NCBI RefSeq assembly: GCF_001677475.2
Contig: NZ_CP015229.1
Length of the DNA: 64,000 bases
From: Escherichia coli
GTDB lineage: Bacteria; Pseudomonadota; Gammaproteobacteria; Enterobacterales; Enterobacteriaceae
Strand: one strand, 5' to 3'
Below the pieces are notes generated by a model. That model did no database searches. It had not been told where the DNA came from and saw only the letters and a list, made by a program, of their open reading frames with translations. Below, piece by piece: positions 1,979-64,000 of this stretch; within the stretch, counting starts at the first letter, position 1; the number at the start of each line of letters is the position of its first letter. Both the position numbers and the translations under genes were made by a program.

Positions 1979-1987
1979 GTTTATTCC

Positions 1988-3475: not shown

Positions 3476-3483
3476 AGTACCGC

Positions 3484-36722: not shown

Positions 36723-36771
36723 TCGTGAAACCCCAGCGTTACAAGACCACCATGCCCCCAGCGCTCCATGA

Positions 36772-40378: not shown

Positions 40379-40768
40379 ATGATTGACGCTCATGACTTCA
40401 CAAGATGGGTGCGCACACAGGACACCCGTCTGGCTCCCGTTCTTCAGGGATTATTTGATCTTTACATCCGTGGTCGTGACAACAGAGCACGCACTACAAA
40501 ACCGGAGAATGCGGACACCCTTTATTTCACAGTAGACGACTGCTACCGCGTGGACTTCACACCACACGGGCTGGCGTTGCACTGCCTGACACCACACGGC
40601 GAATCACTGCTGGCGTATTACGACTCCCCGGCCTCCGTATTTGCGGCAATGCTGGCGCATCGCACTGCTGGCGGGTGTGCCTCGCTGAGTGAATACACCG
40701 CTGAATTTAACCGCCTTTCCGCCATCTTCTCGCAGGAGTGGCAGCGCGTGACGGGATACCAGCCATGA
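40379..40768 (+). CDS. phage early protein, unknown function
   Basis: 129-aa ORF; stop overlaps gpA start (ATGA). Confidence 0.5.
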   Translation: MIDAHDFTRWVRTQDTRLAPVLQGLFDLYIRGRDNRARTTKPENADTLYFTVDDCYRVDFTPHGLALHCLTPHGESLLAYYDSPASVFAAMLAHRTAGGCASLSEYTAEFNRLSAIFSQEWQRVTGYQP

Positions 40769-43605
40769 GTGAGTTTGCATGGAGCTGGAATGAACCACGG
40801 CCAGCCATTGATCCGGCCAGATTTACGGAGCGCAGGCAGGAAACTGAAACCGACCTGCAACGCGCCATCCGTTACTACCTTGAGGCAGACAAAAGGGCAC
40901 AGGAAGAACAGGAAGCGAAGGAAGAAGCCTTTTTCGCACAATCCACCGTGGGTAAAAAACTCATGGCATCCCTTGAGGAAGCCGGACAGCGTGAAAAGCT
41001 GGCACAGAGCATCATCAGTAAGCGCCGGGCAACAGAACAAGACACGGTAGCCCGTGCCTTTGCCACACTAAAGGCACTACCTGTTTATCTGCGTGAACCA
41101 CTGAGCCGCCACCTCTCTTTCCTGCGCAAAAAACAGGAAGCCGATCGCCGGAAAGGCAAAAAGAGCTGGCAGGCGGAACGCTATGCACGCGGAACCCTGC
41201 GCAAAATATTCGAACGTCTGGACCGCACCGACAGCCGCTGGCTGACACCGGGTTATCGCGCCCTTGCCGGACGCGAACGCCTGGACGATTTGCTTTACCT
41301 GCCGCAGCTCAACAAACACCAGATACAGACGCTGGCCACCATGACAGCGGCGATGTTCAGCAGCACCTTCGAAAAACTCTGCGATGGCTTTGGCGCGACT
41401 GATGGCGAGCTGACCATGGATGTAACGCTGAAGGCGTATCAGATGCTGGCCCGCATGGCGTTACACCTGCACGCCATGCCTCCGCATTATGACGTACTGA
41501 CAACAGACAAAGACCGGAGGAACGAACCAGACACAGAACTGCTGCCGGGCGCAATCCTTCGCCTGACCTGTGCGGAATGGTGGAAACGCAAACTGTGGCT
41601 GTTACGTTGCGAGTGGCGGGAAGAACAACTCCGAGCCGCCTGTCTGGTTTCCAGAAAAACATCGCCCTATCTGAGCCAGGACGCGTTAAGCGAGTTTCGC
41701 GCACAGCGCGAGAAAACACGCGATTTCCTGAAAAGTTTCATGCTGGAAAATGAAGACGGGTTCACGATTGATCTCGAGACGGTGTATTACGCGGGAGTAA
41801 GTAACCCGGTTCACCGTAAGGCAGAAATGATGGCCACCATGAAGGGACTGGAACTTCTGGCCGAAGCCCGTGGCGACAGAGCGGTGTTTCTGACCGTCAC
41901 CTGCCCGTCAAAATACCACGCAACAACGGAGAACGGTCATCCGAACCCCAAATGGAACGGGGCCACCATGCGCGACTCCAGCGATTACCTGGTTAACACG
42001 TTTTTTGCGGCGGTCCGCAAAAAACTGAACCGCGACGGCCTGCGCTGGTATGGCATCCGCACGGTGGAGCCTCACCATGACGGCACTGTGCACTGGCATA
42101 TGATGGTCTTTGCACATCCGGACGAGATTGAAACCATCGTGTCCCACGTCTGCGATATTGCCATTCAGGAGGACCGCCACGAGCTGGGCGATGACATAAC
42201 TCCGCGTTTTAAGGCGGAGTATGTCGACGGCTCAAAAGGCACACCAACCAGCTACATCGCCACCTACATCGGAAAGAACTTGGACAGCCGCGCCGTGGAT
42301 GGCATCGACCCGAAAACGGGCAAGCCACGCGTTGACCACGAAACCGGAAAATCAATGGCCGAGAGCGTGGAGCGCGCCATCGGCTGGGCGCGCCTTCACC
42401 GGGTCCGTCAGTTCCAGTTCTTTGGCATCCCCTCCCGTCAGGTGTGGCGTGAACTGCGCCGCCTTGCCAGCCAGATGGCACGCAATCCGGAAGGCCCGCA
42501 ACGGCTGAAAGATGATGCAATGGATGCGGTACTCGCTGCCGCCGATGCCGGGTGTTTTGCCACCTACATTGAAAAACAGGGTGGCGTGCTTGTTCCACGC
42601 AAGGACTACCTGATTCGCACCGCCTACGACCTCGCAGATGAGCTGAACGATTACGGCGAACAGAGCGTACAGATTTACGGGATCTGGTCACCACTCATCG
42701 GGGAATCCTCCCGTGTGTGCACGCATCCGGATAACTGGAAGTTGGTAAGACGTAAACCAGAACCGGAAGACAACGCCCACGAAAATGGTTTTGACCTTCA
42801 GGGCGGCCCTGCCGCCCCTTGGACTCGTGGCAATAACTGTCCCCGTGTACAGGAAACGGACAATAACGGGACAGAACTGCCGGAAGAACGGCCAGCACCG
42901 TGGCCGCAGCTCCCTGACGGCGTTGAAGTGAACGAATGGATGCGCTCACTGAAACAGCACGAACGCCGGGCGCTGATGCGTTCGCTTCGTGACAAACAGG
43001 CAAAAAACAGCAGTGATGAAATGCAGAGCTGGACACAGAGCCGCAAACAGCAGCGGCCTTTGCCTGATAACCACGAATTACTCGCTAAAGAATGGCGGGA
43101 GTCTGCTGAATCTCTCGGCCTGCATATCGGTGAACAACAGATGCAGCACCTGTTACGGGGCGGCAGCCTGTACGTTGACGGCAGCATCATTGCACCGCAG
43201 GGATTTGAAATTGTACGCAAACCGGATACCCGCCCGGACAGCCGAATCACGCAGCTCTGGCAGCGCCTGAGCCGTAATCATGGCGTAAGCAGCACGGAGA
43301 TCCGCCATAACCCGGTCGCCAGCTATCTGGCACAGCTGGGGGCATCAGACCCTGAAGTCGCCGCACGCCTGGCATCCACACTTCAGCAGGACCAGAACAC
43401 CATGAAAACACCCGTTACCGTGCTTTCTGACATGCTGCGCGCCATCCGCGACGCAGAGCACGCACAGAGAATCAGTGAAACCACTGAACGCGCCCGCCGC
43501 AAAGCAGACCTGCTGCGGGGTGGCCTGACCAGTGGAAACAAAAAACAGACAGAAACGGGACTCATGAATCCCGTAAATGAGCAAAAAACGCGCAGCGATA
43601 TATGA
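40765..43605 (+). CDS. rolling-circle replication initiator, P2 gpA-like, with long C-terminal extension
   Basis: ORF 40738..43605; start set at ATG 40765 (MSEFAWSW); HWHMMVF and ATYIGKN motifs typical of gpA-family nicking proteins; 946 aa. Confidence 0.8.
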   Translation: MSEFAWSWNEPRPAIDPARFTERRQETETDLQRAIRYYLEADKRAQEEQEAKEEAFFAQSTVGKKLMASLEEAGQREKLAQSIISKRRATEQDTVARAFATLKALPVYLREPLSRHLSFLRKKQEADRRKGKKSWQAERYARGTLRKIFERLDRTDSRWLTPGYRALAGRERLDDLLYLPQLNKHQIQTLATMTAAMFSSTFEKLCDGFGATDGELTMDVTLKAYQMLARMALHLHAMPPHYDVLTTDKDRRNEPDTELLPGAILRLTCAEWWKRKLWLLRCEWREEQLRAACLVSRKTSPYLSQDALSEFRAQREKTRDFLKSFMLENEDGFTIDLETVYYAGVSNPVHRKAEMMATMKGLELLAEARGDRAVFLTVTCPSKYHATTENGHPNPKWNGATMRDSSDYLVNTFFAAVRKKLNRDGLRWYGIRTVEPHHDGTVHWHMMVFAHPDEIETIVSHVCDIAIQEDRHELGDDITPRFKAEYVDGSKGTPTSYIATYIGKNLDSRAVDGIDPKTGKPRVDHETGKSMAESVERAIGWARLHRVRQFQFFGIPSRQVWRELRRLASQMARNPEGPQRLKDDAMDAVLAAADAGCFATYIEKQGGVLVPRKDYLIRTAYDLADELNDYGEQSVQIYGIWSPLIGESSRVCTHPDNWKLVRRKPEPEDNAHENGFDLQGGPAAPWTRGNNCPRVQETDNNGTELPEERPAPWPQLPDGVEVNEWMRSLKQHERRALMRSLRDKQAKNSSDEMQSWTQSRKQQRPLPDNHELLAKEWRESAESLGLHIGEQQMQHLLRGGSLYVDGSIIAPQGFEIVRKPDTRPDSRITQLWQRLSRNHGVSSTEIRHNPVASYLAQLGASDPEVAARLASTLQQDQNTMKTPVTVLSDMLRAIRDAEHAQRISETTERARRKADLLRGGLTSGNKKQTETGLMNPVNEQKTRSDI

Positions 43606-43681: not shown

Positions 43682-44641
43682 ATGAAAATTTGTATCGACG
43701 ACGGCTCCACCAACATCAAGCTGGCATGGACTGAGAACGGCGAACGCCGCAACGCCATCAGCCCGAACAGCTTCAAGTCGGAATGGTCTGCGCCGTTCGG
43801 TGGCACGCAGCCCGCGAACTACATGCTTGATGGCGTGCGCTATGGTTTTGATCCGGTCAGCGATCGCTTTGTCCAGACGACCGACACGCAATACCAGTAC
43901 AGCGATGTGAATGTCATTGCCATTCATCACGCGCTGGTCAAATCAGGCATCACGCCACAGGAGGTGGATGTGGTTGTCACCCTGCCACTGAGCGAGTATT
44001 TCGACACAAACGCACAGCCGGACATGGCCAACATCAACCGCAAAAAAGCGAACGTTATGCGCCCGGTGGAGTACCAGAACGGCGAAGCATTCACTATCCG
44101 TAACGTGCGGGTTATGCCTGAATCCATTCCGGCTGGCTTTAAGGCACTGGCTGACATGAGTCCGTTTGAATCCCTGCTGATTGTAGATTTGGGCGGAACC
44201 ACGCTGGATGTGGCAAAGGTTCAGGGGCAACTGGCAGGTATCAGCCAGGTGTTTTGCGATCCACACGTAGGCGTTTCTCTGATGGCCGATGCCGTACTGT
44301 CGGTGATGGCCACTAACGGTATGCGCACCAGTCACCACATCGCCAATACCATTATCGAACATCGCCATAATGAAGCCTGGCTGCGCCAGCACATCCACAA
44401 TGACGCGCATTACGCCAGCCTGATGGAGGTTATTCGTGAAAAGGAAGAAACACTGAAACAACGCGTGATCCGCGCGCTGGCGGGTTTTTCGGGTTACGGG
44501 CGGGTGATGGTTGTCGGTGGAGGGGCGGAGATTGTGGCACCCGCTATCCGCGAAGCCTGCGGAGTTCATGCGACTTTCATCGCGGACGGGGTGCCACAGT
44601 TTGCTCTGGTTAATGGGCTGTACGCAATGGACAAGGAGTAA
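43682..44641 (+). CDS. actin-like ATPase, ParM/StbA family
   Basis: 319-aa ORF; motifs DDGSTNIKL, SPNSFK, YSDVNVIAIHHAL, MPESIPAG, DLGGTTLD, VVGGGAEI align with plasmid R1 ParM as I recall it. Confidence 0.85.
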   Translation: MKICIDDGSTNIKLAWTENGERRNAISPNSFKSEWSAPFGGTQPANYMLDGVRYGFDPVSDRFVQTTDTQYQYSDVNVIAIHHALVKSGITPQEVDVVVTLPLSEYFDTNAQPDMANINRKKANVMRPVEYQNGEAFTIRNVRVMPESIPAGFKALADMSPFESLLIVDLGGTTLDVAKVQGQLAGISQVFCDPHVGVSLMADAVLSVMATNGMRTSHHIANTIIEHRHNEAWLRQHIHNDAHYASLMEVIREKEETLKQRVIRALAGFSGYGRVMVVGGGAEIVAPAIREACGVHATFIADGVPQFALVNGLYAMDKE

Positions 44642-47572: not shown

Positions 47573-47597
47573 CAGCCCCATCACGGGGCTGTTTTTT
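47573..47597. terminator. bidirectional intrinsic terminator between convergent orfZ and portal gene
   Basis: Stem CAGCCCC/GGGGCTG followed by T6 on plus strand and T-rich tract on minus strand; portal stop codon lies in the loop. Confidence 0.7.
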
Positions 47598-48627
47598 CAT
47601 CAAGAAGAGCATAAGAATTAAAACGGATCACCTCTTCGCCAAGCCAGTCATTGATATGCTTCATAGCCTCCATGACGGGCATCAGCTCGTTAATTGCGTA
47701 AACCCGCGCGGCCTTCTCCACATCACCAAACGCACTTTTTTCACCCGGCATCGCCCCCATCAGTTGCGGCGGAACGCGGTGCGCAGCCAGCACATCATCA
47801 CGGGATGCCGCCTTAACATTCATGAACTCATCCTTTGCGGTGATCTGCTGGAACGGCAAAATTTGCACCCCCTCTTTGCCCCCGTTGGGCGCATGAATGA
47901 GCACGTTTTTAAACGCACCACCACCACGCGCACCCTGTAGCGTTTCTTTCAGGGAGTCCATGCTTTCGCGGTTTACCTGCGCTGCACCGATGTAGATGAT
48001 GCACCCGGCGTGGGATCCGTTGTCGTAATACAGTTTTCTGAACATGTCCGCCGAATGAGACAGGCTGGCCGAGAGTAATGCGCCGAGATATTCCGGCATG
48101 CCGTAGATTTCCTGGTTAATGTCAGGATTCATCAGGTGGCACACTTTGCTTGGGCGAAACTGAAACGCGTCCTTGCCATCCTGCACATACCACCATGATT
48201 CAAGATCGCTTCCGCGTCGCATGTATTTCGCCAGGGCGTGCCGTAATTTAAGCGGTTCGCCGAGCATATTGCTTCGAAGCTCAAGGAATGCGTTACCGAA
48301 CACAAACCAGTCCAGCGCCAGCGCCGAGAAATCCTGCCGGGAAAGCAGCGGGTGCGGGATGTAGCAACCGAGTAATACATTGCGCTTAAAGTAAAGCGCA
48401 GACTGATGCCAGGACGTTTGCCGGGCAGCTCTTGCCAGACCGTACCAGTCCACCGGGGTTTCATACCACCGCCCGTTATCAGCACAGTACATATTGTCCA
48501 GCAGGTCATGCCCGGTCAGGCGATAAGGACCATCAAATGTGAATGCACTGAGCGATGATTCTTTCCTGAGCGCATCAGCGAGATCAATGCGTGAACTCAT
48601 GCGCACTTTTTTATTTTTTCTGCTCAT
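47581..48627 (-). CDS. portal protein, P2 gpQ-like
   Basis: 348-aa ORF, leftward, immediately downstream of terminase ATPase gene with ATGA overlap; size and position as P2 Q. Confidence 0.75.
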   Translation of the reverse strand: MSRKNKKVRMSSRIDLADALRKESSLSAFTFDGPYRLTGHDLLDNMYCADNGRWYETPVDWYGLARAARQTSWHQSALYFKRNVLLGCYIPHPLLSRQDFSALALDWFVFGNAFLELRSNMLGEPLKLRHALAKYMRRGSDLESWWYVQDGKDAFQFRPSKVCHLMNPDINQEIYGMPEYLGALLSASLSHSADMFRKLYYDNGSHAGCIIYIGAAQVNRESMDSLKETLQGARGGGAFKNVLIHAPNGGKEGVQILPFQQITAKDEFMNVKAASRDDVLAAHRVPPQLMGAMPGEKSAFGDVEKAARVYAINELMPVMEAMKHINDWLGEEVIRFNSYALLDEKTAP

Positions 48628-50378
48628 CAGAACTCCATAACCGTGAAACGCTCGTTTTCTCCTTCGCCGCCAATCGGTTCGTTAATGACAGCAAGCATGG
48701 TTGCCCACGCAAGGTCGCCGTGGCTGATCCCCCTCGCGCGGTCCGTTTCGTAAGTGATAAAGCCGCCCGGTGTTTTCACCTTACGCACGGCGTTAAAGGC
48801 CGCGACCAGCTCGCGTTCGGCGCGATCGTATTCCCAGCGCCCGGCACGCATTATTTGCAGCATTTTCAGTACCAGCGACCGTTTTGATGACAGCGTGAAG
48901 GTGTACGGAATAGCAGCAGGGAAAAACCGTTTCACTATCTGATAAACAGCCTCCCCGTTCCCGCCCGTCACATCAATGCCGATGTGTTCCACGTTGTAGC
49001 GATACGTGAACTCTTCAATGACTCTGGCCTGTTCTTCAAACTCCAGCCCCTGAACGCGTCGCGTCTCCACCGTTCGAAAACGGCCACCAGGAACAGCCGG
49101 AGGAACCACCACGGACACAGCGCCGCTGTCGCCGTTGCCACTGCTGCCGTTTGCGTCATACCCAATCCATACCAGACGATTCCCCATCGGGCGGGGAGCA
49201 AAAGGTTTCCAGTCTTTCCAGTCGTCGTATCCGTCAACACCGCAGCCAATCAGGATATTCAGGTTAAATGCCGATTCCCCTTCGCGAACAAACTCACACA
49301 TATAGAGATTGAGGAACTCGTCTTCGGTGTTTTCATCACGGATTTCGTCAATATCGGTGTGTTTCCAGCCGTGATTAACCACATCTTCCAGCGTGACAAT
49401 TTGCCGCCACGTCCGGTCAGGGCAGATAAGCCCGTTATGCAGCGTTTTCCAGTCCACAGAAAAACGCTGGCGTTTATGCGAGGCCTTTTTCTCGTTCCAG
49501 CGGTCGCCGTTCCAGTAGGCGTATGCCTCGTGCGTTTCGGTGGATGGCGTGGAGAAGTAGGTGCGCCGCAGTCCGCTGAGGGTTGCCATAGCGCCAGCCA
49601 CCTTGCGCAGTTCAGCAAAGCGACTGACCCAGAAAAATTCATCAAAATAAAAATTGCCCGTATAGGACTGTGCCGACGCAGCAGAAGTGCCGAGAAAATG
49701 CAGCTCTGCGCCGTTGGAGAGGATGATTTTATCGCCCCCTTTCAGCTCCACATCAACTTCAGCCGCGGCCTTCTGAATAATGCTTTTAAACTGGAACGCC
49801 TGACGACGCGACGCAGACAAAAAAATCTGGTTACGCTGGTAAGGTTGCGCCACATCGTCACGCAGCGCCATCAGCAGCGCTTCCTGTGCAAAATACCAGG
49901 TTGCCCCAATCTGTCGGGATTTCAGGATCATCCTGTTACGTATCCCGGCTTCCCTGCAAAGGGTCAGGGAGTCAAACCAGCCCCGCTGATGCCACTCCAG
50001 CCTGCTGATGATTTTTTCCCGCAGTGCGGCAATCTGTTCCGGCGTGAAATGATTTTTGAGTTTTTTCGCCCGGCCTTTCTTTCCTGCGGCCATCACATCC
50101 GGCTGGCCATCATGCAGCTTTTTAAGCTGCCGGGTCAGCAGGTCTATTTCCTTAAAGTCACCGCCTGTTTTATTCTGTTTTTCAGTAAGCTGGATGAGGC
50201 GCGCATCGATGGACTGCGTGACACGCTGCACGGGTGGCGCTTCATCCCACTGGTCGCGTTTTTTCCACGCATAAATCGTGTTCGGGTTTATTCCCATCAG
50301 ACGTGATATTTCTGCGGGCGGATAACCCTGCCAGTAAAGTTGCCGCGCACGCTGGCGCACAAAAGCGTCCTGAATCAT
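48627..50378 (-). CDS. terminase large (ATPase) subunit, P2 gpP-like
   Basis: 583-aa ORF; leftward, divergent from capsid genes as in P2; KSRQIGATWYFA ATPase region. Confidence 0.85.
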   Translation of the reverse strand: MIQDAFVRQRARQLYWQGYPPAEISRLMGINPNTIYAWKKRDQWDEAPPVQRVTQSIDARLIQLTEKQNKTGGDFKEIDLLTRQLKKLHDGQPDVMAAGKKGRAKKLKNHFTPEQIAALREKIISRLEWHQRGWFDSLTLCREAGIRNRMILKSRQIGATWYFAQEALLMALRDDVAQPYQRNQIFLSASRRQAFQFKSIIQKAAAEVDVELKGGDKIILSNGAELHFLGTSAASAQSYTGNFYFDEFFWVSRFAELRKVAGAMATLSGLRRTYFSTPSTETHEAYAYWNGDRWNEKKASHKRQRFSVDWKTLHNGLICPDRTWRQIVTLEDVVNHGWKHTDIDEIRDENTEDEFLNLYMCEFVREGESAFNLNILIGCGVDGYDDWKDWKPFAPRPMGNRLVWIGYDANGSSGNGDSGAVSVVVPPAVPGGRFRTVETRRVQGLEFEEQARVIEEFTYRYNVEHIGIDVTGGNGEAVYQIVKRFFPAAIPYTFTLSSKRSLVLKMLQIMRAGRWEYDRAERELVAAFNAVRKVKTPGGFITYETDRARGISHGDLAWATMLAVINEPIGGEGENERFTVMEF

Positions 50379-51391: not shown

Positions 51392-52444
51392 ATGAATCTG
51401 GTGATGTCAGATATTACCCGCAACAAGCTGGGTTGCTATATGGCGCAGCAGGCGTCGCTTAACAATATCCCGGTATCTGCACTGGTATCGCGATTTACCG
51501 TAGAACCCTCGGTGCAGCAGCGTTTTGAAAACGCAGTAAAGGAGAGCACTGAATTTACAAAAAAAATTAACGTGTTCGGTGTGACCGACCAGAAAGGCGA
51601 AAAAATCCTCCTGGACACCACCGGGCCGATTGCGCGCACGAATACCAGTTATGACGGCACAAAACGCCGTAACCCGAATAACGTGGTTGATCTGAAAAAC
51701 CGCAAATATCAGTGCGAACAGGTGAACTACGACACGTTTATTTCGTATCCGAAGCTTGATGCCTGGGCGGCACACCCTGATTTTCAGTCACGCGTCAGCA
51801 CACGGATTGCCCGGCAGGTGGCGCTTGACCGCATCATGATCGGTTTCAACGGCACGTCTCACGCAGATGAGTCCAACTTCAGCACCAACAATCTGCTTCA
51901 GGACGTTAACGTGGGATGGCTGGAGCACATCAGAACCGACGCCAGCGAGCGCGTAATGAATGACGTGACGCTGACCTCCCGCAACATGGACAACACTGTG
52001 GCGCACGCGGGTAAGTATGCGAACGCTGATGCACTGGTACAGGACGCGCGCTCATCCCTGCTGGATGAATGGCACAAGGAAGCTGACGACCTCGTGGTGA
52101 TTATGGGGCGCAACCTGTTTAACTCGCTGCGTCTGCCCGTACTGAACAGCATCAGCGGCCAGAATCCCAATGCGGAATTACTTGCCGGACAGCTCATCCT
52201 GTCATCGCGCGCCATTGGCGGGCTGGATGTATTCCTTGCGCCGTTCTTCCCGGATGCAACGATGCTGATCACCTCGTTCAACAACCTGTCGATTTACTGG
52301 CAGAAAGGAACAATGCGTCGCCTGATGAAAGACGAGCCGGAATACAACCGCATCGCCACCTACCAGTCCATCAATGACGCTTATGTCGTTGAAGACTATG
52401 GCAAGTGCGCGATGGTCACTGGCCTGAAGTTCGCCGACAGCTAA
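51392..52444 (+). CDS. major capsid protein, P2 gpN-like
   Basis: 350-aa ORF with GGAG RBS; motifs FTVEPSV, YQCEQVNYD, IMIGFNG, DATMLIT, VVEDYG resemble P2 N. Confidence 0.85.
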   Translation: MNLVMSDITRNKLGCYMAQQASLNNIPVSALVSRFTVEPSVQQRFENAVKESTEFTKKINVFGVTDQKGEKILLDTTGPIARTNTSYDGTKRRNPNNVVDLKNRKYQCEQVNYDTFISYPKLDAWAAHPDFQSRVSTRIARQVALDRIMIGFNGTSHADESNFSTNNLLQDVNVGWLEHIRTDASERVMNDVTLTSRNMDNTVAHAGKYANADALVQDARSSLLDEWHKEADDLVVIMGRNLFNSLRLPVLNSISGQNPNAELLAGQLILSSRAIGGLDVFLAPFFPDATMLITSFNNLSIYWQKGTMRRLMKDEPEYNRIATYQSINDAYVVEDYGKCAMVTGLKFADS

Positions 52445-55357: not shown

Positions 55358-55811
55358 TTCCCTGCGTGAAGCCATGACCCGTTCATGCCGATGGTGTCAG
55401 GCCAACCCGGAAAAATTCACCATTTTCGTGGAGAGCGGCAACATTGAAACGACAGGAGAAACCCCATCGTTTGTTTACCGCTATCAGATGGTGATGTTTG
55501 TCATGGATTACGCCGGGGAGCTGGACGACCTCACGCTGCCGCTGCTGGCGTGGTTATCCGAAAATCAGCCACAGTTGTTGCTCAACCCGGAGCGTAATCA
55601 GGACATCAAATTCTCCGCCGTTATCAATGACGATGACAGCGCCGATCTCCTGTTTACGCTCCCCCTGCGGGAACGCGTTCGCATCACGCGCAGCAGTCAG
55701 GGCACACCGCAGGCAGAACACCTGCCGGAGCCAAAACCACGCCTGCCATCTTCCGAAGGCGACTGGTCGCATGTATTCCGGGATGTGACGTGGGGTGAAA
55801 GCGATGGATAA
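55344..55811 (+). CDS. tail completion protein, P2 gpR-like
   Basis: 155-aa ORF; position and size as P2 R. Confidence 0.55.
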   Translation: MLKTDSLREAMTRSCRWCQANPEKFTIFVESGNIETTGETPSFVYRYQMVMFVMDYAGELDDLTLPLLAWLSENQPQLLLNPERNQDIKFSAVINDDDSADLLFTLPLRERVRITRSSQGTPQAEHLPEPKPRLPSSEGDWSHVFRDVTWGESDG

Positions 55812-56439
55812 GGCATTCACCCGCGTGGATGAAACCTTTGAGGCCATCCGCGACAGCCTGAATCAGCAGGCCATCAATAACATCGCCAGAAAGCTGGCAC
55901 AGGATTTACGCCGCGCCCAGCAGGCGCGTATCCGGTCACAGAAAGCGCCGGACGGGACCGCGTGGACACCACGCAGACGCCGCGTAACCCGGATACAGGA
56001 ACGCATTCGCTTTATCTGGAATAACGAAGCACGCACGCTGAAAAACTGGCATCACGACACGGGGAAATACGGGCGAACCATTACCGGGTGGGATGAGGAT
56101 AAAAACAATATCCGCACGTTTTACCGGGATGACATCGACCGTTTTCTGGAAATACGCACCCGGCGCATCAACCAGGACAGCACAAAGCGCGTCCCCATGT
56201 TCGTAAAACTGCGCACCGCCCGCTACCTGAAAGCCCGTGCAGATGCTTCCGGTGTGACGGTGGGTTACAGCGGCGTGGCTGCACGTATTGCACGCGTTCA
56301 TCAGTTTGGTGAGCGCGATCAGGTTGCGCCGGGCATTTTCACCGATTACCCGGTACGTGAGCTGTTGGGCATCAGTCAGGCAGATGAACGCCTGATTTAT
56401 AACACGGTGCTGGGCCGGATTGCGGAGGCTGTACGGTGA
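55795..56439 (+). CDS. virion morphogenesis/tail completion protein, gpS-like
   Basis: 214-aa ORF; position after R. Confidence 0.5.
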   Translation: MKAMDKAFTRVDETFEAIRDSLNQQAINNIARKLAQDLRRAQQARIRSQKAPDGTAWTPRRRRVTRIQERIRFIWNNEARTLKNWHHDTGKYGRTITGWDEDKNNIRTFYRDDIDRFLEIRTRRINQDSTKRVPMFVKLRTARYLKARADASGVTVGYSGVAARIARVHQFGERDQVAPGIFTDYPVRELLGISQADERLIYNTVLGRIAEAVR

Positions 56440-57017
56440 GCGCAGAACTCATGCGGCTGCTGAGCAACATCATCCGCACCGGGATCATCTCTGAAGTTGA
56501 TGAGGAATCCTGGTGCGTGCGCGTTCGCAGCGGCGAACTGGAAACAGGCTGGCTGCGCTGGAACACCACTCGCGCGGGAGCCTTCAATGTGTGGCTGCCG
56601 CCATCACCAGGCGAACAGGTGGTAATTGCCTGCATCGGCGGCAACCCGGAAACCGCCATGATAATTGGCAGCCTGTGGAGTGATGCCAGTCCGGCCCCCG
56701 GCAAAAGCCTGAAAGAAATCGTGATCAGCGCGCCGGACGGCGCGGTGTTCCGCTACGACGCGGACGCTGGCGCACTGAGCGCCAGCGGCATGAAAACGGC
56801 CACTTTACAGGCATCCGTCAGCGTGACACTGGATACGCCCGTCGTGGAATGCACAAACCTTCTGAGAACGGCGACGCTTGACGTCACAAAAGGAGGAAAG
56901 ATGAGCGGCAATATCACGCACAGCGGCGGCAACTTCACCTCAAACGGCATTACCGTGCATACGCATAAACACGGTGGCGTGAAAGGCGGCAGCGATTCGA
57001 CAGGAGGCCCGCAGTGA
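56436..57017 (+). CDS. baseplate spike/assembly protein, P2 gpV-like
   Basis: 193-aa ORF; Gly-rich C-terminus; position. Confidence 0.7.
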   Translation: MSAELMRLLSNIIRTGIISEVDEESWCVRVRSGELETGWLRWNTTRAGAFNVWLPPSPGEQVVIACIGGNPETAMIIGSLWSDASPAPGKSLKEIVISAPDGAVFRYDADAGALSASGMKTATLQASVSVTLDTPVVECTNLLRTATLDVTKGGKMSGNITHSGGNFTSNGITVHTHKHGGVKGGSDSTGGPQ

Positions 57018-57364
57018 CAACCCGCTACACAGGAATGAACCCGGACGGAACGGGAAACCTGAACGATATGGAGCACCTGAAACAGTCAGTCAGGGACATC
57101 CTGACCACCCCGCTGGCAAGCCGGGTTATGCGACGGGAATATGGCAGCCTTGTGCCTGATTTGATTGACGAACCCATGAATAACACCACGCGTCTGCAAT
57201 GCATGAGTGCTGCCGTGATTGCACTGACACGATGGGAACCCCGCATTGCCCTGGACGCCATCGACGTTGTCTGGAAGGCAGGAGGCCGCGCCGGGGTGAC
57301 GCTGTCGGGCACTGTCATGCAGACCATGCAGAATGTTGAATTAACCATCACGCTGAGGGAGTAA
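57014..57364 (+). CDS. baseplate wedge protein, P2 gpW-like (GPW/gp25 family)
   Basis: 116-aa ORF; position and size. Confidence 0.65.
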   Translation: MTTRYTGMNPDGTGNLNDMEHLKQSVRDILTTPLASRVMRREYGSLVPDLIDEPMNNTTRLQCMSAAVIALTRWEPRIALDAIDVVWKAGGRAGVTLSGTVMQTMQNVELTITLRE

Positions 57365-57367
57365 ATC

Positions 57368-58264
57368 ATGCCTGCCGTTGACCTTTCACAGTTACCGGAA
57401 CCCGCCATCATCGCGGAGCCTGACTTTGAGGCAATTCTGGCTGACACAAAGGCCATGATGATTGCGTCCTATCCCGCCGAACAGCGTGAAGCCGTCTCCG
57501 CCGCGCTGGAGCTGGAATCGGAACCCCTGAACGTTATCGCCCAGACAACAGCGTTTCGTGAAATGCTGTTACGCCAGCGGGTCAATGAGGGGGCACGCGC
57601 CTGCATGTTAAGCCACAGCGCCGGGACAGACCTGGACAACCTCGCGGGCAATATGAACACAAAGCGCCTGACCATCACTCCGGCAACGGATACCACCGAC
57701 GCGGTGATGGAGAGCGACACCTCGCTGAGACTGCGGGCGCAGCGGGCGTATGACGGCCTGAGTGTTGCAGGCCCGTCAGGCGCATACGAGTATTTTGCAC
57801 GCAGCGCCAGCGGTCTGGTGCGTGATGCGCGGGCCATCAGCCCGTCTCCGGCCTGTGTGACGGTTTCCATTCTGTCCACTGAAGGCGACGGCACAGCAAC
57901 GGAGGCGTTGCTTAATACCGTTCGCGCCGTTCTGAATGCAGAGGATACCCGCCCGGTGGCCGACCGCCTTACTGTACAGAGCGCCAGAATCGTGACATGG
58001 CGGCTGAATGCAAAACTGTACTTTTACCCCGGCCCGGAATCCGAACCTATTCTGGCCGCGGCGGAATCGTCATTCAGGAAGTGGCTGGCTGAACAGGGGC
58101 TTATCGGTCAGGACGTGGCGTTGTCCGCCATTGCTGCCGCACTGCATGTGCACGGTGTGCAACGCGTGGAGATAATCGAACCCACACAGAATATGGCCAT
58201 CAGCGACATACAGGCGGCGCGCTGTGAGTCATTCACCATCAGCGAAGGTGGACGCAATGAGTAA
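57368..58264 (+). CDS. baseplate protein, P2 gpJ-like
   Basis: 298-aa ORF; position and size. Confidence 0.7.
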   Translation: MPAVDLSQLPEPAIIAEPDFEAILADTKAMMIASYPAEQREAVSAALELESEPLNVIAQTTAFREMLLRQRVNEGARACMLSHSAGTDLDNLAGNMNTKRLTITPATDTTDAVMESDTSLRLRAQRAYDGLSVAGPSGAYEYFARSASGLVRDARAISPSPACVTVSILSTEGDGTATEALLNTVRAVLNAEDTRPVADRLTVQSARIVTWRLNAKLYFYPGPESEPILAAAESSFRKWLAEQGLIGQDVALSAIAAALHVHGVQRVEIIEPTQNMAISDIQAARCESFTISEGGRNE

Positions 58265-58865
58265 TTCGTTGTTACCACCATCAGCCAGCAATTTCATGCG
58301 TTGTGCCGAAGCCGTCGGAACACGCATTACAGACATTCCGGTAGACCTCAACACGCTGTGGTCGCCGGACACCTGCCCGGTGCATCTGCTGCCTTATCTC
58401 GCCTGGGCGTTTTCCGTTGACCGCTGGGATCGCAACTGGCCGGAAGAGACAAAGCGACAGGTGATTCGTGATGCATGGCTGATACACCGACACAAAGGGA
58501 CCATCAGCGCACTGCGAAGAGCCGTGGAGCCTCTCGGCTACCTGATTGAAGTAAAGGAGTGGTGGCAACTCAACGAGGAGCCGGGAACATTTCGCATTGT
58601 TGTCGGAGTACTTGATCAGGGCATCACCGATGAAATGTATCAGGAACTTGAGCGCCTTATTGCGGATGCAAAACCAGTAAGTCGCCATCTGACGGGGCTG
58701 GCGATCAGCCTGAGTGTGAACGGAAAGATTTTCGTTGGTACGGGATGCTATCACGGCGATGCCCTGACGGTTTATCCCTACACCCCGGAGTCCATTATTG
58801 TCGAAGGGGATTATTTCCCTGCCCCGGCCATTCATTTAATTGATAATCTGAGAGTAAACGCATGA
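58257..58865 (+). CDS. baseplate protein, P2 gpI-like
   Basis: ORF 58224..58865 with start at [11 protein letters not shown]; position. Confidence 0.6.
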
Positions 58866-60346
58866 CAGTGAAATACTACGCCATTCTGACTAATCAGGGC
58901 GCGGCACGACTGGCTAACGCGACGATGCTCGGCAGTAAGCTGAATCTGACGCAAATGGCCGTTGGTGATGCAAATGGTGTGTTACCAACACCAGACCCTG
59001 CACAAACAAAACTGATTAACCAGAAACGCATTGCACCGCTGAATCTTCTGAGTATTGACCCGAACAACCAGAACCAGATTATCGCGGAGCAAATCATCCC
59101 TGAGAACGAGGGCGGATTCTGGATCCGTGAGATTGGTCTTTATGATGATGAAGGCGTACTCATTGCGGTGGCAAACTGCCCGGAAACGTACAAACCGCAG
59201 TTGCAGGAAGGCAGTGGACGCACCCAGACTATCCGCATGATTCTGGTTGTCACGAACACCGAAGCCATCACGCTGAAAATCGACCCGTCTGTGGTTCTGG
59301 CAACCCGCAAATATGTGGATGACAAAATCTCAGAGCACGAGCAGTCACGACGTCACCCGGACGCCTCGCTGACTGTAAAAGGTTTTACTCAGTTAAGCAG
59401 CGCAATTAACAGTGAATCAGAAACACTGGCCGCAACACCGAAAGCGGTTAAGGCTGCATATGACCTGGCTAACGGGAAATATACCGCCCAGAACGCCACC
59501 ACAACACAAAAAGGGATTGTTCAGCTCAGTAGCGCCACAAACAGCACGTCTGAAACGCTGGCAGCGACACCAAAAGCTGTTAAGGCGGTAATGGATGAAA
59601 CGAGCAAGAAAGCACCATTAAACAGCCCGGCACTGACCGGAACGCCAACAACACCAACAGCGCCACAGGGGACTAATAGTACCCAGATCGCAAGCACGGC
59701 TTTCGTTATGGCCGCGATTGCCGCACTTGTAGATTCGTCACCTGATGCACTGAACACGCTGAACGAACTGGCTGCGGCGCTGGGCAATGACCCGAATTTT
59801 GCGACCACCATGACTAACGCGCTTGCGGGTAAGCAACCGAAGGATGCCACCCTGACGGCGCTGGCGGAGCTTGCTACATCAGCAGATAAACTCCCATATT
59901 TTACAGGGGCAGATCGTGCCGCGTTAACCGCGTTGACAAGTGTTGGACGTGCCATTCTTGGTAAAACCAGCACTCAGGGAGTTCTTGATTACCTTGGTTT
60001 GGGAGAAGCGGCTAAAAGGAATGTAGGGACAGGGGCGAATCAGATACCTGATATGGGTAGCTTCACGCTTTCTGTTTCAGGTACTGGATATCAAAAATTA
60101 CCATCAGGTTTTATTCTTCAGTGGGGATCAATCGGCGCACCAGGCATTGCACAGGATGTAGTAACCCATTTCCCGATTGCATTTCCAAACAGATGTCTGC
60201 GTGTTTTGGTCTCACAAGACTACACACCAGATAGCGGGGCTGTTGGTTATATTGCCTGTGCAGGTTTTAGTCCCGACCCGGTTAAATTTATATCCAGAGC
60301 CAGTACTCCTGGCCTCGGCGCTTCATTTTTAGCGTTAGGCTGTTAA
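58862..60346 (+). CDS. tail fibre protein, P2 gpH-like (constant N-part plus invertible C-terminal part)
   Basis: 494-aa ORF; internal [13 protein letters not shown] repeats typical of tail fibres; C-terminal ~115 aa lie inside invertible segment. Confidence 0.8.
59981..60006. promoter_or_regulatory. invertase crossover site (left), inside tail-fibre gene
   Basis: Reverse complement TTCTCCCAAACCAAGGTAATCAAGAA matches right site in first 14 positions; gix/hix-like architecture. Confidence 0.65.
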
Positions 60347-60367
60347 TTTAGCTATATGGAGTGAAAA

Positions 60368-60808
60368 ATGAATTACATATATTCCGCGACTACAAACTCT
60401 TTCTATCCGCTGGAGATGAAAGAGGATTACACTCAAGCTGACTCATGGCCAGATGATGCTGTTGAAGTTGATGAGCAAGTGTATATTGAGTTTTCCGGAT
60501 TACCGCCGAAAGGAAAAATCCGTATCGCTGGAGAAAATGGTTTTCCTGCATGGTCTGAAATTCCACCACCAACACATGAGGAACAAATTGCTGCAGCCGA
60601 ATTGGAGAAGCAGCAATTGATTAATCAGGCCAACGATTATATGAACAGTAAACAATGGCCTGGTAAAGCGGCTATTGGTCGTCTGAAAGGTGAGGAACTG
60701 GCGCAATATAATTTGTGGCTGGATTATCTGGACGCACTGGAACTGGTTGATACCTCCAGTGCTCCAGATATTGAATGGCCTACGCCTCCGGCAGTTCAGG
60801 CCAGATGA
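60368..60808 (+). CDS. tail fibre assembly protein (Tfa, gpG-like), currently expressed orientation
   Basis: 146-aa ORF; C-terminal motif LWLDYLDALELVDTSSAPDIEWP shared with inverted paralog. Confidence 0.7.
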   Translation: MNYIYSATTNSFYPLEMKEDYTQADSWPDDAVEVDEQVYIEFSGLPPKGKIRIAGENGFPAWSEIPPPTHEEQIAAAELEKQQLINQANDYMNSKQWPGKAAIGRLKGEELAQYNLWLDYLDALELVDTSSAPDIEWPTPPAVQAR

Positions 60809-61376
60809 CATCCGGCGCGGTGCTGGTATCTGTTGCCGTCACCGCGTCAATGTAATCCAGCACAGCGTTAAGTCTGGTTGTTTCTGCCTGCGTCAGTTTA
60901 CGTCCGGCCTGTAATTTCAGCTGAATCAGACTAATGGAAGCCATTGCTGCATCAATCAGTGACTGGCGCTGTGCTTCTGCCGTTTCTACTGCGGCACCGT
61001 GTTGTGCCTCAGTATCTGTCACCCATTTCTCACCATCCCATTTATCATATGGCGTTAACGGTGAAAGCGTGACATAACCGTTTTTGATGGCACCGATATA
61101 ATCCACTGTAACAGCAGCACCATTTTCGATTGAGTAAACAGTCTCATTGCGATGGTCTTCTTCATGGCTCCATCCCTTACCTGTAAATACTGCCACTCTT
61201 CCCGGAATGTTTTTGCCAGGGTCAATTCCAGTGGAACAGGCGGGCATACTTACGCCAGTATTAATATATTCATCAGACCAGCCCGTATACTCAGATGTTT
61301 CAGCATCATAATAAAAACAACGCATATCGCCCGGCACTGTAGCCAGTCCATTTTCATCAAAAATTGGGGTCATCAT
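60780..61376 (-). CDS. alternative tail fibre assembly protein (Tfa'), inverted orientation
   Basis: 198-aa ORF convergent with tfa; C-terminal motif LNAVLDYIDAVTATDTSTAPDVIWP. Confidence 0.65.
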   Translation of the reverse strand: MMTPIFDENGLATVPGDMRCFYYDAETSEYTGWSDEYINTGVSMPACSTGIDPGKNIPGRVAVFTGKGWSHEEDHRNETVYSIENGAAVTVDYIGAIKNGYVTLSPLTPYDKWDGEKWVTDTEAQHGAAVETAEAQRQSLIDAAMASISLIQLKLQAGRKLTQAETTRLNAVLDYIDAVTATDTSTAPDVIWPELPEA

Positions 61377-61816
61377 TTAGCCCTCACCAGAAAGTTAAAT
61401 GCAATATTTCGCGGTCTGACGGCAACAAAATTCACACCATCACCCACAGAGTTACTGGTGAAATTAAATCGTGAAAATCCTGGCTGATTTCCGGCGATAC
61501 CATCATGAAAATTAATTGCGTGGCCCGCACCATCGCCTATATTCCCGGCAAACTGAGAAAAGTTTGTAGCTGCCTGCCAGCTTAATAATTCGCGACCACC
61601 GTCTACACCTCGCCCGTCATCCCAGATACGAATGAAATCACCGCGGGCTTCAGGTAATACCAGCGAAGGAAACACTTTCGCCAGCACAGGGTAATCAGTG
61701 GCAGAAAATTTCGCCCCGTTGAACTTCAAAAACACCATACCGGACCAGCTGTCGATTACAGTATTTGGCATTGCCGCGGAGGGCCAGAAGAACGGAACGC
61801 CAATAGCTGGAGTACC
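61373..61816 (-). CDS. alternative tail-fibre C-terminal segment (promoterless; fused to H constant part after inversion)
   Basis: Open frame 61373..61870 on minus strand runs through right crossover site; encodes LGEG at the junction, matching LGLGE at the left site in H. Confidence 0.6.
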   Translation of the reverse strand, partial: GTPAIGVPFFWPSAAMPNTVIDSWSGMVFLKFNGAKFSATDYPVLAKVFPSLVLPEARGDFIRIWDDGRGVDGGRELLSWQAATNFSQFAGNIGDGAGHAINFHDGIAGNQPGFSRFNFTSNSVGDGVNFVAVRPRNIAFNFLVRAK

Positions 61817-61842
61817 TTCTCCCAAACCAACGTTTAAGAAAA
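61817..61842. promoter_or_regulatory. invertase crossover site (right)
   Basis: TTCTCCCAAACCAACGTTTAAGAAAA, imperfect palindrome resembling gix/hix; inverted repeat of site at 59981..60006. Confidence 0.65.
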
Positions 61843-61897
61843 TGCAGAGATTACGGCTAACTGGCATCATCCCCGGTTTTTATTCAGGGGATCCATC

Positions 61898-62497
61898 ATG
61901 CTTATTGGCTATGTCCGCGTATCAACAAATGACCAGAATACAGAATTGCAGCGTAACGCGCTGGAGTGCGCAGGATGTGAACTGATTTTTGAAGATAAAA
62001 TCAGCGGAACGAAATCAGCCAGACCGGGATTGAAAAAACTACTCAGAACGCTATCAGAAGGAGATACGCTGGTTGTCTGGAAGCTGGACAGACTGGGCAG
62101 AAGTATGAAACACCTGATCACGCTTATTGAGGAATTGCGGGAAAAAGGGGTTAATTTCCGTAGTCTGACGGACAGCATCGACACATCAACACCCATGGGG
62201 CGTTTCTTTTTTCACGTCATGGGGGCTTTAGCCGAAATGGAACGTGAATTAATTGTAGAGCGTACACTGGCCGGACTGGCAGCAGCACGCGCACAAGGAC
62301 GCATTGGCGGACGTCGCCCGAAGTTGACAAAAGAACAACACGAGCAAATAGCGAGGCTGATTAAAAACGGTCATGACAGGAAACAACTGGCGATCATTTA
62401 CGACATCGGCATATCGACGATTTATCGCTATCACCCTGCAGGCGATATACAGGCTGAAGAAACAACCAGGCAGACTCAGGAAAATGAAAACCGCTAA
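61898..62497 (+). CDS. serine DNA invertase, Pin/Gin/Hin/Cin family
   Basis: 199-aa ORF; N-terminal catalytic motif MLIGYVRVSTNDQ, resolvase domain, C-terminal HTH; adjacent to invertible segment. Confidence 0.9.
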   Translation: MLIGYVRVSTNDQNTELQRNALECAGCELIFEDKISGTKSARPGLKKLLRTLSEGDTLVVWKLDRLGRSMKHLITLIEELREKGVNFRSLTDSIDTSTPMGRFFFHVMGALAEMERELIVERTLAGLAAARAQGRIGGRRPKLTKEQHEQIARLIKNGHDRKQLAIIYDIGISTIYRYHPAGDIQAEETTRQTQENENR

Positions 62498-62523
62498 TCT
62501 GACCATTAGCGGTTTTGCGTTAA

Positions 62524-63018
62524 TCAAAACAGCCCTTTAACGGAGCTGGCCGCGCTGTTAAGGGATGATGTGACCTTATCTTTGAAGCCGGACAGCATAT
62601 CACTGAATGATGAGGATTGCAGGCGCTCCCGCAAATCCTCATCACAGCGTTCAAGAGTCAGTGAAAATTCTATCTTTTTCGCCTTACCGTAGCGATCAAA
62701 CTCGGAACGGGTCGTATTCGTTTCAGTCAGTACATACATGCCGTAAATTTGCCCGACACCATCAATCAGAGGCCAGGGGCGTCCTGTATATGCCTGCGTG
62801 GTCAGCAACGAAAGCGACACTTCGCCACCTGTAATTTCAGGATAAAGCACGCCGGAAAGCACAATGCGATCATCACCTGCACCGATATACTGCCAGCTTG
62901 CTGAACGGTTAACGCGTTCATTTTTCACATGCCGCCAGCTTTTGTTTTGCTGTAACTGCTGATGCGGCAGTGTGCGCAGCTCAAAAACAAACATGCCGTA
63001 GATCATCATCATGACCAT
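62524..63018 (-). CDS. tail protein, P2 gpU-like
   Basis: 164-aa ORF; motifs GMFVFELRTLPHQQ, GVLYPEITGG, WPLIDGVGQIYGMYV resemble gpU as I recall it. Confidence 0.55.
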   Translation of the reverse strand: MVMMMIYGMFVFELRTLPHQQLQQNKSWRHVKNERVNRSASWQYIGAGDDRIVLSGVLYPEITGGEVSLSLLTTQAYTGRPWPLIDGVGQIYGMYVLTETNTTRSEFDRYGKAKKIEFSLTLERCDEDLRERLQSSSFSDMLSGFKDKVTSSLNSAASSVKGLF

Positions 63019-63024
63019 GACTCC

Positions 63025-64000
63025 TCAATCTTTATCGTAAAAACTGCCACGTCCGGCACGGGCGCGCCGTTCCATCTCTGCCCTGACCATTTCACCGACC
63101 AGTTTCGCCAGTTCGCGGGGATTCTGCGTAACAACGTTATGCAGATGAACATGAATTTCACCGCCAAATCCGGAGACAGCAGGCTCCCGATTACGGGAAG
63201 CTGCAGGAACTGATGCCACTGGCGATCGTATGGCCTCCGCCACCGGGCGGGAGCTGGCCGCAACAACAGGGACCAGCGCCGGAGGCAGCGGAGCCGGGAC
63301 TACGGGTGTGATATTAATTGCGGGGGCAGGCTTACTGACCTGCGCAATCTTCCGCTCCTGCCACTCCCCACGAACAGCCAGTGCGCGGGGCAGGTTCTTA
63401 AAGACAATATCGCCGGGGCCAATGCGTTTTTTCGTCTCATCAACCAGCTTACCTGTGTTATCAGCAATTTTGCTGAGTCTGCGTAGCGTCCCGGTATTGC
63501 TGTCTGTGAGCGGTTTGTTGTCTTTGGGTTTATCACCTCCGGTGCCATTGCCATTTTCCACAGGCTTCGGCGGATTGATTTTCGCAAGGTCCCCCTGAAG
63601 CAAGGCAACCTTGTCCTGAAGAATGGCCGCACGCTGTGCGTCTTCGATTTTCTTGCGCGCCTTTTCCGCTTCATCCGGAAGGACGCCAAGTTTTTCAAGT
63701 ATCCACGCCAGCGTATCCAGTAGCATTTTTGCAGGTGTCAGAACAAGCTGTAACGCACCGCCAAGAACGTTACCGAATATCTCGCCAGCACTGGTACATT
63801 TATCCAGCGTTTCCTTGCTGGACTCCATCGGTGACAGCAGCGATTTAAACCAGTTAAACACCTGGCTGATCCCGCTTCCGATTGCGTCAAAAACAGGACC
63901 AAACCGTTCAAAGGTTTCGCGCAACGGGGTCAGCCTTTCCATAATCCCGCTGAACACCCCGGCATAAAACGCCTTGATGGGTTCCCAGTATTTCCAGATG
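63025..64000 (-). CDS. tail tape-measure protein, C-terminal part (gene start beyond window)
   Basis: Minus-strand frame open to window end; low-complexity Ala/Pro-rich and coiled-coil regions; immediately upstream of gpU-like gene. Confidence 0.55.
   Translation of the reverse strand, partial: IWKYWEPIKAFYAGVFSGIMERLTPLRETFERFGPVFDAIGSGISQVFNWFKSLLSPMESSKETLDKCTSAGEIFGNVLGGALQLVLTPAKMLLDTLAWILEKLGVLPDEAEKARKKIEDAQRAAILQDKVALLQGDLAKINPPKPVENGNGTGGDKPKDNKPLTDSNTGTLRRLSKIADNTGKLVDETKKRIGPGDIVFKNLPRALAVRGEWQERKIAQVSKPAPAINITPVVPAPLPPALVPVVAASSRPVAEAIRSPVASVPAASRNREPAVSGFGGEIHVHLHNVVTQNPRELAKLVGEMVRAEMERRARAGRGSFYDKD

Follow-up and report, generated by a model that had tools for sequence, protein, structure and literature searches.

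The 64,000-nt stretch of Escherichia coli DNA analyzed here (the window) very probably carries a two-site DNA inversion switch of the Hin/Gin/Cin/Pin (Din) family, located in a P88-like prophage of the P2 family. Its layout is that of the tail-fiber inversion cassettes of the Mu G, P1 C, and e14 P type, with a constant fiber N terminus outside the invertible segment and two C termini with their chaperones inside it on opposite strands; the fiber fusion is in frame in both orientations of the segment. These features of the sequence support the original prediction, which read the locus as a putative Gin/Pin-type tail-fiber inversion switch. The locus appears to be a further member of the known tail-fiber inversion systems, of an ordinary, textbook type and apparently intact.

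The segment is bounded by two gix/pix-like sites of 26 bp in inverted relative orientation. The left site, TTCTTGATTACC TT GGTTTGGGAGAA, lies at 59982-60007 (+), 1 nt away from the interval first proposed (59981-60006), and has its TT core at 59994-59995. The right site, TTCTCCCAAACC AA CGTTTAAGAAAA, lies at 61817-61842 (+), exactly where it had been placed, with its AA core at 61829-61830. The two sites match at 19 of 26 positions, and the core dinucleotide together with the entire inner half-site (14 nt) is identical between them; the outer half of the right site, CGTTTAAGAAAA, fits the palindrome poorly. Within the window, the exact inner 12-mer is found only at these two sites. A palindromic pattern derived from the Mu gix sites, TTN5AAACCNNGGTTTN5AA, which is independent of the window sequence, likewise picks out exactly these two places in 64 kb when up to 2 mismatches are allowed. 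Its chance expectation is 0.26, and at least two matches were obtained in 4 of 100 shuffles. The left site also agrees at 19 of 26 positions with hixL. Both sites resemble the published repeat of the e14 P segment, the left-site 16-mer TTGGTTTGGGAGAAGC at 15 of 16 positions and the right-site CCTTCTCCCAAACCAA (61815-61830) at 16 of 16 (PMC12529663). Pattern and half-site searches returned only two crossover sites in the window; thus, a multiple-inversion system, be it a shufflon or the Min type of p15B, was ruled out by the lack of extra sites in the 64 kb.

Between the two cores lie 1833 bp (59996-61828), in agreement with the ~1.8 kb foreseen. Pfam and PHROGs matches bear out the proposed content of this segment, namely, the 3' end of the fiber gene H plus tfa on the plus strand and an alternative fiber C terminus plus a second tfa on the minus strand. 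The H open reading frame (ORF) spans 58862-60346 (+). Codons 1 to 378 (58862-59995, +) form its constant part, located outside the invertible segment, which contains a Phage_tail_fib N-terminal domain (Pfam, 3e-63) and Phage_fiber_2 repeats (7e-41). This part is 99% identical to the corresponding gene of E. coli CFIAFB20190157, regardless of the direction of the segment. The variable C terminus expressed in the present orientation is, as predicted, the one on the plus strand, with its 116 aa encoded at 59996-60346 (+) rather than at 60007-60346; it is gp53-like. It matches Pfam Gp53-like_C (4e-14, H residues 412 to 494) as well as PHROG tail-fiber and virion-protein families, the latter at their C-terminal ends. 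The chaperone gene of this cassette, tfa, follows at 60368-60808 (+; 146 aa; Pfam Caudo_TAP, 2e-38; phrog_188, 2e-67).

The silent cassette runs on the minus strand and comprises a collar-type fiber C terminus of 151 aa (61373-61828), whose stop codon overlaps the start of its chaperone gene (ATGA), and the chaperone gene itself, tfa' (60780-61376; 198 aa; Pfam Caudo_TAP, 8e-27; phrog_105, 1e-83). A Pfam search with the silent C terminus gave no match; it was identified by PHROGs as a tail fiber (phrog_3100, 2e-52) and a tail collar fiber (phrog_523, 7e-42), again at the C-terminal ends of the families. The expressed and silent C termini are unrelated to each other (BLASTP E value of 0.59). 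The convergent tfa and tfa' genes overlap by 29 nt, and only the C-terminal 72 aa of tfa' are common to both products (36% identity), the N-terminal parts being different.

When the segment is flipped in silico, H becomes an in-frame fiber of 529 aa ending in the collar-type domain, as the proposal of an alternative fiber required. The left site encodes (V)LDYLGLGE. The peptide LGLGE had been expected at both junctions; GLGE is indeed encoded at both, preceded by L at the left site and by V at the right (NVGLGE), because the first base of that codon falls outside the segment. The junction of the fiber remains LGLGE, in frame, after inversion in silico.

The invertase gene (61898-62497, +; 199 aa; Pfam Resolvase, 6e-52, and HTH_7, 4e-13) starts 55 nt beyond the right site and outside the segment, which confirms the expected Pin/Gin-type enzyme next to the switch. 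Its product matches the Mu Gin structures PDB 4m6f and 3uj3 with an E value of 4e-92 over residues 1 to 187, and its first 180 codons give 76% identity with Mu Gin and 83% with K-12 PinE. The protein is full length and has no inactivating change; the catalytic residues Y5, R7, S9, D12, and R42 are kept. Six further residues, K46, K47, R50, Q150, R153, and L154, correspond to Hin K47/R48/K51 and Q151/R154/L155, given a numbering offset of 1 that comes from our own alignment to the Hin sequence. In Hin, these residues of basic helix B and of helix-1 in the DNA-binding domain, respectively, contact Fis/enhancer and are uniquely conserved in Fis-dependent invertases (PMC3798978).

A search for a Fis-binding enhancer toward the 5' end of the invertase gene had been suggested as a check of the original prediction, and a candidate is present at 61920-61982 (+). 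It consists of two Fis-consensus 15-mers, TATCAACAAATGACC and GCGCAGGATGTGAAC, with centers 48 bp apart, the pattern sought being two KNNYRNNWNNYRNNM sites at this spacing. Both the 15-mer consensus and the hin sequence were cross-checked only through the ATTTA/TAATG motifs and residue numbers in PMC3798978. The consensus is degenerate, and across the whole window the two-site pattern occurs 5 times against 4 expected, which is no enrichment; we therefore dropped it as a stand-alone detector and used it only alongside homology. Thus, the putative enhancer rests on position and homology. In terms of position, the center of its first site lies 97.5 bp from the right core, and the hin enhancer lies ~100 bp from the nearest site (PMC3798978). 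In terms of homology, it aligns with Mu gin, site I being identical and site II matching at 14 of 15 positions. Synonymous conservation is also higher here than in the rest of the gene: the same codons are used at 13 of 19 positions versus 43 of 118 in comparison with Mu gin (P = 0.012) and at 18 of 22 versus 52 of 125 in comparison with pro483 (P = 0.0008). The signal is weak against two pinE genes (P = 0.09 and 0.34).

Both orientations of the segment occur in close relatives. E. coli 1303 carries the same prophage in the orientation of the window, with 97.5% identity over 7.3 kb. In E. coli CFIAFB20190157, the segment is flipped: collinear alignments end at 60008 and restart at 61816, and the annotated product of H there is a 529-aa fusion. 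Of the records from complete E. coli genomes with at least 80% query cover, 15 have the orientation of the window and 21 the flipped one. A further case is provided by the near-isogenic E. coli RIVM_C036204 and RIVM_C029670, whose version of the element shares 88.7% identity with 59983-62338. The two strains agree completely in the flanks (100% identity over 4016 and 4520 bp), but the 1852 bp in between is inverted, and one polymorphic base, located where the inner half-site ends, travels with the segment. The inversion breakpoints in relatives fall inside the sites. The original prediction was to be abandoned if a single orientation were ever observed together with an inactivated invertase gene; these relatives and the unimpaired invertase gene speak to the contrary.

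By analogy with the characterized enzymes, the switch would work as follows. The late operon V-W-J-I-H would be read from outside the segment, so that the first 378 residues of H would always be made. Invertase dimers would bind both sites and, together with Fis on the enhancer within the 5' end of the invertase gene, would form an invertasome on supercoiled DNA. Ser9 would cut all four strands at the central TT/AA dinucleotide, half of the tetramer would turn 180 degrees, and the DNA would be religated. In the flipped segment, H would end in the 151-aa collar-type domain and be followed by tfa', replacing the 116-aa gp53-like domain followed by tfa. A lysogen population would therefore release particles with either receptor-binding tip, and a broader range of hosts might be adsorbed. 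We infer this wider set of adsorbable hosts as the host-range effect of inversion; catalysis, its dependence on Fis, the rate at which this strain switches, and a different receptor specificity of each tip are likewise inferred.

It follows from this reading that the annotated 494-aa fiber with the gp53-like tip would be only one of two products for this genome and that one prophage is predicted to have two adsorption specificities. The "partial" fiber gene on the other strand would be a functional cassette, not a pseudogene, and differences between assemblies of the locus, across isolates or reads, need not reflect misassembly. The locus adds nothing new to the general working of such switches. 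The sole point of further interest is an StfE2-like antiphage protein that might be made from a short leader ORF in the flipped state.

This ORF (61373-61870, -) joins a leader of 14 codons (MMPVSRNLCIFLNV; 61829-61870, -) to whichever cassette faces the invertase. The leader was taken from the list of ORFs, starts outside the segment, 28 nt from the right site, and is laid out as in e14 stfE. Inversion of the e14 P segment creates StfE2, which is reported to lower adsorption of T2 (PMC12529663) and to block that of other phages too. Alongside or instead of its effect on host range, the switch could then serve host defense against phages. The flipped ORF would encode a 130-aa gp53-like protein laid out like StfE2, and the protein obtained by in silico flip does align with K-12 StfE2 obtained in the same way (125 aa; E value of 3e-11); the similarity is low, however, at 29% identity. 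The e14-like repeats (16/16 on the right and 15/16 on the left) point in the same direction as the leader. Yet the prophage looks complete, with an H that has a full P2-type N terminus and is joined to the baseplate operon, so that a fiber switch is the straightforward function. A consensus scan found no promoter near the short ORF, and no good ribosome-binding site is evident. The NCBI annotation pipeline (PGAP) labels the equivalent ORF of E. coli 1303 a partial pseudogene, and the present orientation gives the short ORF the collar-type domain, an arrangement reported to be ineffective in e14. On balance, we consider a defensive role unlikely. The same holds for a double-acting switch in which each inversion would change the tip of H and also reequip the leader ORF, so that a flipped lysogen could make a free 130-aa StfE2-like adsorption blocker; we mention it as an improbable extension. 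If true, it would amount to a prophage-borne, phase-variable superinfection defense, open to flipping by other Pin enzymes of the cell as well, and a 2025 finding on a cryptic remnant would be extended to a P2-family prophage that is apparently complete.

Alternatively, the locus may have descended from an active switch and no longer invert, either because the invertase is silent or because the outer half-site or the enhancer is nonfunctional, leaving the fiber permanently gp53-like. The source is one assembled sequence, in which a single orientation is visible; a consensus scan found no sigma-70-like promoter near the invertase gene, and the outer half of the right site deviates from the palindrome. 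Against this, the invertase ORF is full length and retains all catalytic and Fis-contact residues. The right site, including its degenerate half, is unchanged in E. coli 1303 and in the flipped CFIAFB20190157, and it is found with one base changed in e14, in pro483, and in the RIVM pair, which did invert. Moreover, the two orientations are about equally common among relatives, and further Pin enzymes encoded by the same genome can use these sites in trans (PMC12529663). A copy that no longer inverts is thus very unlikely. As for a chance inverted repeat beside an unrelated resolvase-type gene, with spurious minus-strand ORFs, inverted repeats of at least 14 nt are indeed common (21 pairs in 7 kb), but the Mu-derived pattern, the strong PHROG matches of the minus-strand ORFs (1e-83 and 2e-52), and the natural inversions in relatives, which break exactly at the sites, refute this idea and make its probability negligible.

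According to Pfam, the window encodes the P2-type structural genes GPA, portal, terminase, P2 capsid, S, V, I, and U. As in the P88-like Peduoviridae (Xuanwuvirus), the FI-U tail operon is inverted and placed after the invertase gene, and the gene order is identical to that of P88 and of E. coli 1303, which has a complete copy. Since the window stops within the tape-measure gene T, we judged completeness from E. coli 1303, and the prophage is apparently complete. No phage record in the phage collection covers at least 80% of the region; the full copies most similar to it are found as prophages in E. coli chromosomes. The invertase was also considered as the maker of the inverted FI-U operon. 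This idea found no support: a regular-expression search for a third gix-like site in the loci of P88, 1303, CFIAFB, and pro483 returned nothing beyond the two sites already known in each.

Among known systems, the P segment of e14, which was inverted experimentally by PinE, PinQ, and PinR (PMC12529663), shares with this locus the repeat core (CCTTCTCCCAAACCAA, 16/16; TTGGTTTGGGAGAAGG, 15/16; central TT/AA), a similar size (1797 versus 1833 bp), and the order of fiber C terminus plus tfa, tfa' plus the alternative fiber C terminus, and invertase, with a short leader ORF on the invertase side. Its PinE is the 83% identical enzyme described above. In contrast, e14 is what remains of a decayed lambdoid prophage, and its StfP has 209 aa, whereas a full P2-type H is present here. 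The K-12 cassettes are mostly other sequences, with 90% nucleotide identity only at 60631-61061 (the 3' part of tfa and most of tfa'); the invertase region has 76% nucleotide identity to K-12, and the invertase here has a C-terminal tail 15 residues longer.

The Mu G segment with Gin, like the P1 C segment with Cin, belongs to the same mechanism class. Mu has the order Sc, Sv-U, U'-Sv', and gin, the same 55-nt spacing between site and gene, the 76% identical invertase and alignable enhancer region noted above, and the junction peptide LGLQE where LGLGE is found here. Yet the G segment is ~3 kb long and has TC/GA as its core, its cassettes show no sequence relationship to those described here, and Mu is a transposing rather than a P2-type phage. 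Escherichia phage P88 (Xuanwuvirus, Peduoviridae) has the order W-J-I-fiber-tfa, tfa'-fiber', and invertase, followed by U-T-E-FII-FI on the opposite strand, but its gix sites are of the Mu type (TC/GA core), and its fiber is long and Mu-like. Phage pro483 has near-identical pix-type sites (TTCTCGCATACCTTGGTTTGGGAGAA and TTCTCCCAAACCAACGTTTATGAAAA), but its tail operon is in the P2 orientation. The identity of both P88 and pro483 over the region is only 82 to 90% and partial. Salmonella Hin/hix shares the recombinase family, the 26-bp site design, and the conserved Fis-contact residues; its Fis enhancer, which lies within the 5' end of hin at ~100 bp from the nearest site (PMC3798978), has a putative counterpart here. 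Unlike this system, Hin flips a promoter and is encoded within its own segment, whereas the invertase gene described here lies outside and coding sequence is exchanged. Lastly, a terminator-like hairpin of 12 pairs (62487-62516), located between the convergent invertase and gpU genes and recognized by consensus match only, is likely a two-way terminator.

Fis-assisted, Ser9-mediated switching between two tip/chaperone pairs is the best explanation for this locus, which is a further example of a long-known kind of switch. The original prediction of an inversion switch is supported, save for the position of one site and one detail of the junction peptide. We located the left crossover site at 59982-60007 (TTCTTGATTACC TT GGTTTGGGAGAA; core 59994-59995), one base away from where it had been placed; the right site, at 61817-61842 (TTCTCCCAAACC AA CGTTTAAGAAAA; core 61829-61830), had been given correctly. 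Compared in inverted orientation, the sites agree at 19 of 26 positions, and the core dinucleotide and the whole inner half-site are identical, as a repeat search also recovered. Given these cores, the invertible DNA spans 59996-61828 (1,833 bp). The H frame reads LDYLGLGE at the left site and the minus strand reads NVGLGE at the right; therefore, the peptide common to both is GLGE and not LGLGE, as had been proposed, since the leading L occurs only at the left site and is V at the right. This difference stems from a base outside the invertible segment.

The tail-fiber gene H (58862-60346, + strand) is an unbroken ORF of 494 aa, in which Pfam recognizes a P2-type tail-fiber N-terminal domain, two fiber repeats, and a Gp53-like C-terminal domain. 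It is the last gene of a P2-type baseplate operon that also comprises S (55795-56439), V (56436-57017), W (57014-57364), J (57368-58264), and I (58257-58865). Downstream lies the chaperone gene tfa (60368-60808, +), followed on the minus strand by a second Caudo_TAP gene like it, tfa' (60780-61376), and a silent-cassette fiber ORF (61373-61870) that matches the C-terminal ends of the tail-fiber (2e-52) and tail-collar-fiber (7e-42) PHROG families. The expressed and silent fiber C termini are unrelated (BLASTP E value of 0.59), and similarity between the tfa and tfa' products is confined to the C-terminal 72 residues (36% identity), a divergence that fits tip-specific chaperones. Flipping 59996-61828 in silico yields a 529-aa H ending in a collar-type domain, with its stop codon overlapping the tfa' start (ATGA). 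Fis-assisted, Ser9-mediated inversion would alternate two tips for receptor binding, each paired with the chaperone that matches it; transcription of the constant part of H comes from outside the segment.

The P segment of e14, a K-12 cryptic prophage, has repeats reported as TTGGTTTGGGAGAAGG and CCTTCTCCCAAACCAA, and its inversion by PinE, PinQ, and PinR was shown experimentally (PMC12529663). The sites studied here match these repeats at 15/16 and 16/16 positions. The silent-cassette ORF extends across the right site and starts at an ATG 28 nt beyond it, and stfE in e14 likewise runs through its site to an outside start. Inversion would place this leader in front of a gp53-like protein whose layout resembles that of StfE2, a reported anti-phage protein. 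A less likely alternative to the fiber switch is thus that the short leader ORF serves a StfE2-like host defense: the layout is conserved with e14, and the predicted in silico product is 130 aa long and 29% identical to K-12 StfE2.

The invertase gene (61898-62497, +) encodes 199 aa with Resolvase and HTH_7 domains. Residues 1 to 187 align with two Gin crystal-structure sequences (E value of 4e-92), and over 180 codons the protein shares 76% identity with Mu Gin and 83% with K-12 PinE. It retains Y5, R7, S9, D12, and R42. Fis-dependent invertases uniquely conserve basic residues at Hin positions 47, 48, and 51, together with Q151, R154, and L155 (PMC3798978); the equivalents here are K46, K47, R50, Q150, R153, and L154.

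A frozen relic, in which the switch no longer inverts, is at odds with this intact gene and with the presence of these sites in copies that have inverted. The prophage of E. coli 1303 is the same and has the orientation seen here (97.5% identity over 7.3 kb), whereas in E. coli CFIAFB20190157 the segment is flipped: the latter is collinear with 56700-60008 (99.0%) and 61816-64000 (97.6%), inverted relative to 60548-61833 (96.6%), and annotated with a 529-aa H followed by the other tfa. Positions 4578-5104 of its locus (L002), set against 60009-60547, hold a diverged version in place of both the gp53-like tip and the 5' portion of the accompanying tfa; as identity elsewhere in the prophage region is 96 to 99%, single cassettes are swapped within the module. 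Among complete E. coli genomes with at least 80% query cover, 15 records have the orientation seen here and 21 the flipped one. The Dutch isolates RIVM_C036204 and RIVM_C029670, whose element is 88.7% identical to 59983-62338, are a natural example of recent inversion between otherwise identical isolates: their flanks are 100% identical (4,016 and 4,520 bp), the 1,852 bp between are inverted, and the only two differences are a polymorphic base ending the inner half-site, which moves with the segment. Their module (3992-5857 in both loci) is of the pinE type and adjoins another baseplate cluster, one close to yfhH/tadA. A chance arrangement is refuted, since the inner 12-mer has no further copy in the 64-kb window and a pattern derived from Mu gix sites (TTN5AAACCNNGGTTTN5AA, at most two mismatches) matches exactly the left and right sites against 0.26 matches expected.

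A search for a Fis enhancer in the 5' part of the invertase gene had been suggested. Positions 61920-61982 hold a candidate pair, TATCAACAAATGACC and GCGCAGGATGTGAAC, with centers 48 bp apart, both fitting KNNYRNNWNNYRNNM, which we take to be the Fis-site consensus. Yet by itself the two-site pattern shows no enrichment across the window, with 5 matches against 4 expected; the putative enhancer is therefore called from position and homology. The corresponding portion of Mu gin aligns with this stretch (site I identical, site II 14/15), as does the hin enhancer in the sequence used here, which the ATTTA and TAATG motifs quoted for it support (PMC3798978). The center of the first site lies 97.5 bp from the right core; the corresponding hin distance is about 100 bp (PMC3798978). 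Invertase codons 8 to 29 (61919-61984) are the same at 13/19 positions in Mu gin, compared with 43/118 in the rest of the gene (P = 0.012), and at 18/22 in phage pro483, compared with 52/125 (P = 0.0008); comparison with two pinE genes gives a weaker signal. Such synonymous conservation would be expected of a coding sequence in which a cis-acting enhancer is embedded.

The ppsA and ppsR genes of the window are 98.7% identical to those of E. coli, which places the host in Escherichia. The prophage lies after btuC (33641-34621) and includes integrase (35730-36872, -), portal (47581-48627), terminase (48627-50378), and capsid (51392-52444) genes. Judging from E. coli 1303, whose complete copy has the same order and ends at ogr, hok, and ihfA, it is inserted between btuC and ihfA. 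In many E. coli matches, homology begins at query position 287-292, the left site; thus, sites, cassettes, and invertase move between different prophages as a single module. The FI-to-U tail operon, immediately past the invertase gene, has the opposite orientation to that in P2, with gpU (62524-63018) and the tape-measure gene on the minus strand (62524-64000), the gene order of P88 (6636-12211 in its locus; 159-5744 in a further compared locus, L009). The invertase as past maker of this large inversion is without support, as a search of the P88, 1303, CFIAFB20190157, and pro483 loci gave no third gix-like site. The prophage also encodes a 955-aa GPA replication protein (40738-43605, +), whose GPA domain begins at residue 194, leaving an N-terminal extension, and the adjoining gene (43682-44641, +) encodes a ParM/StbA-type plasmid-segregation actin.
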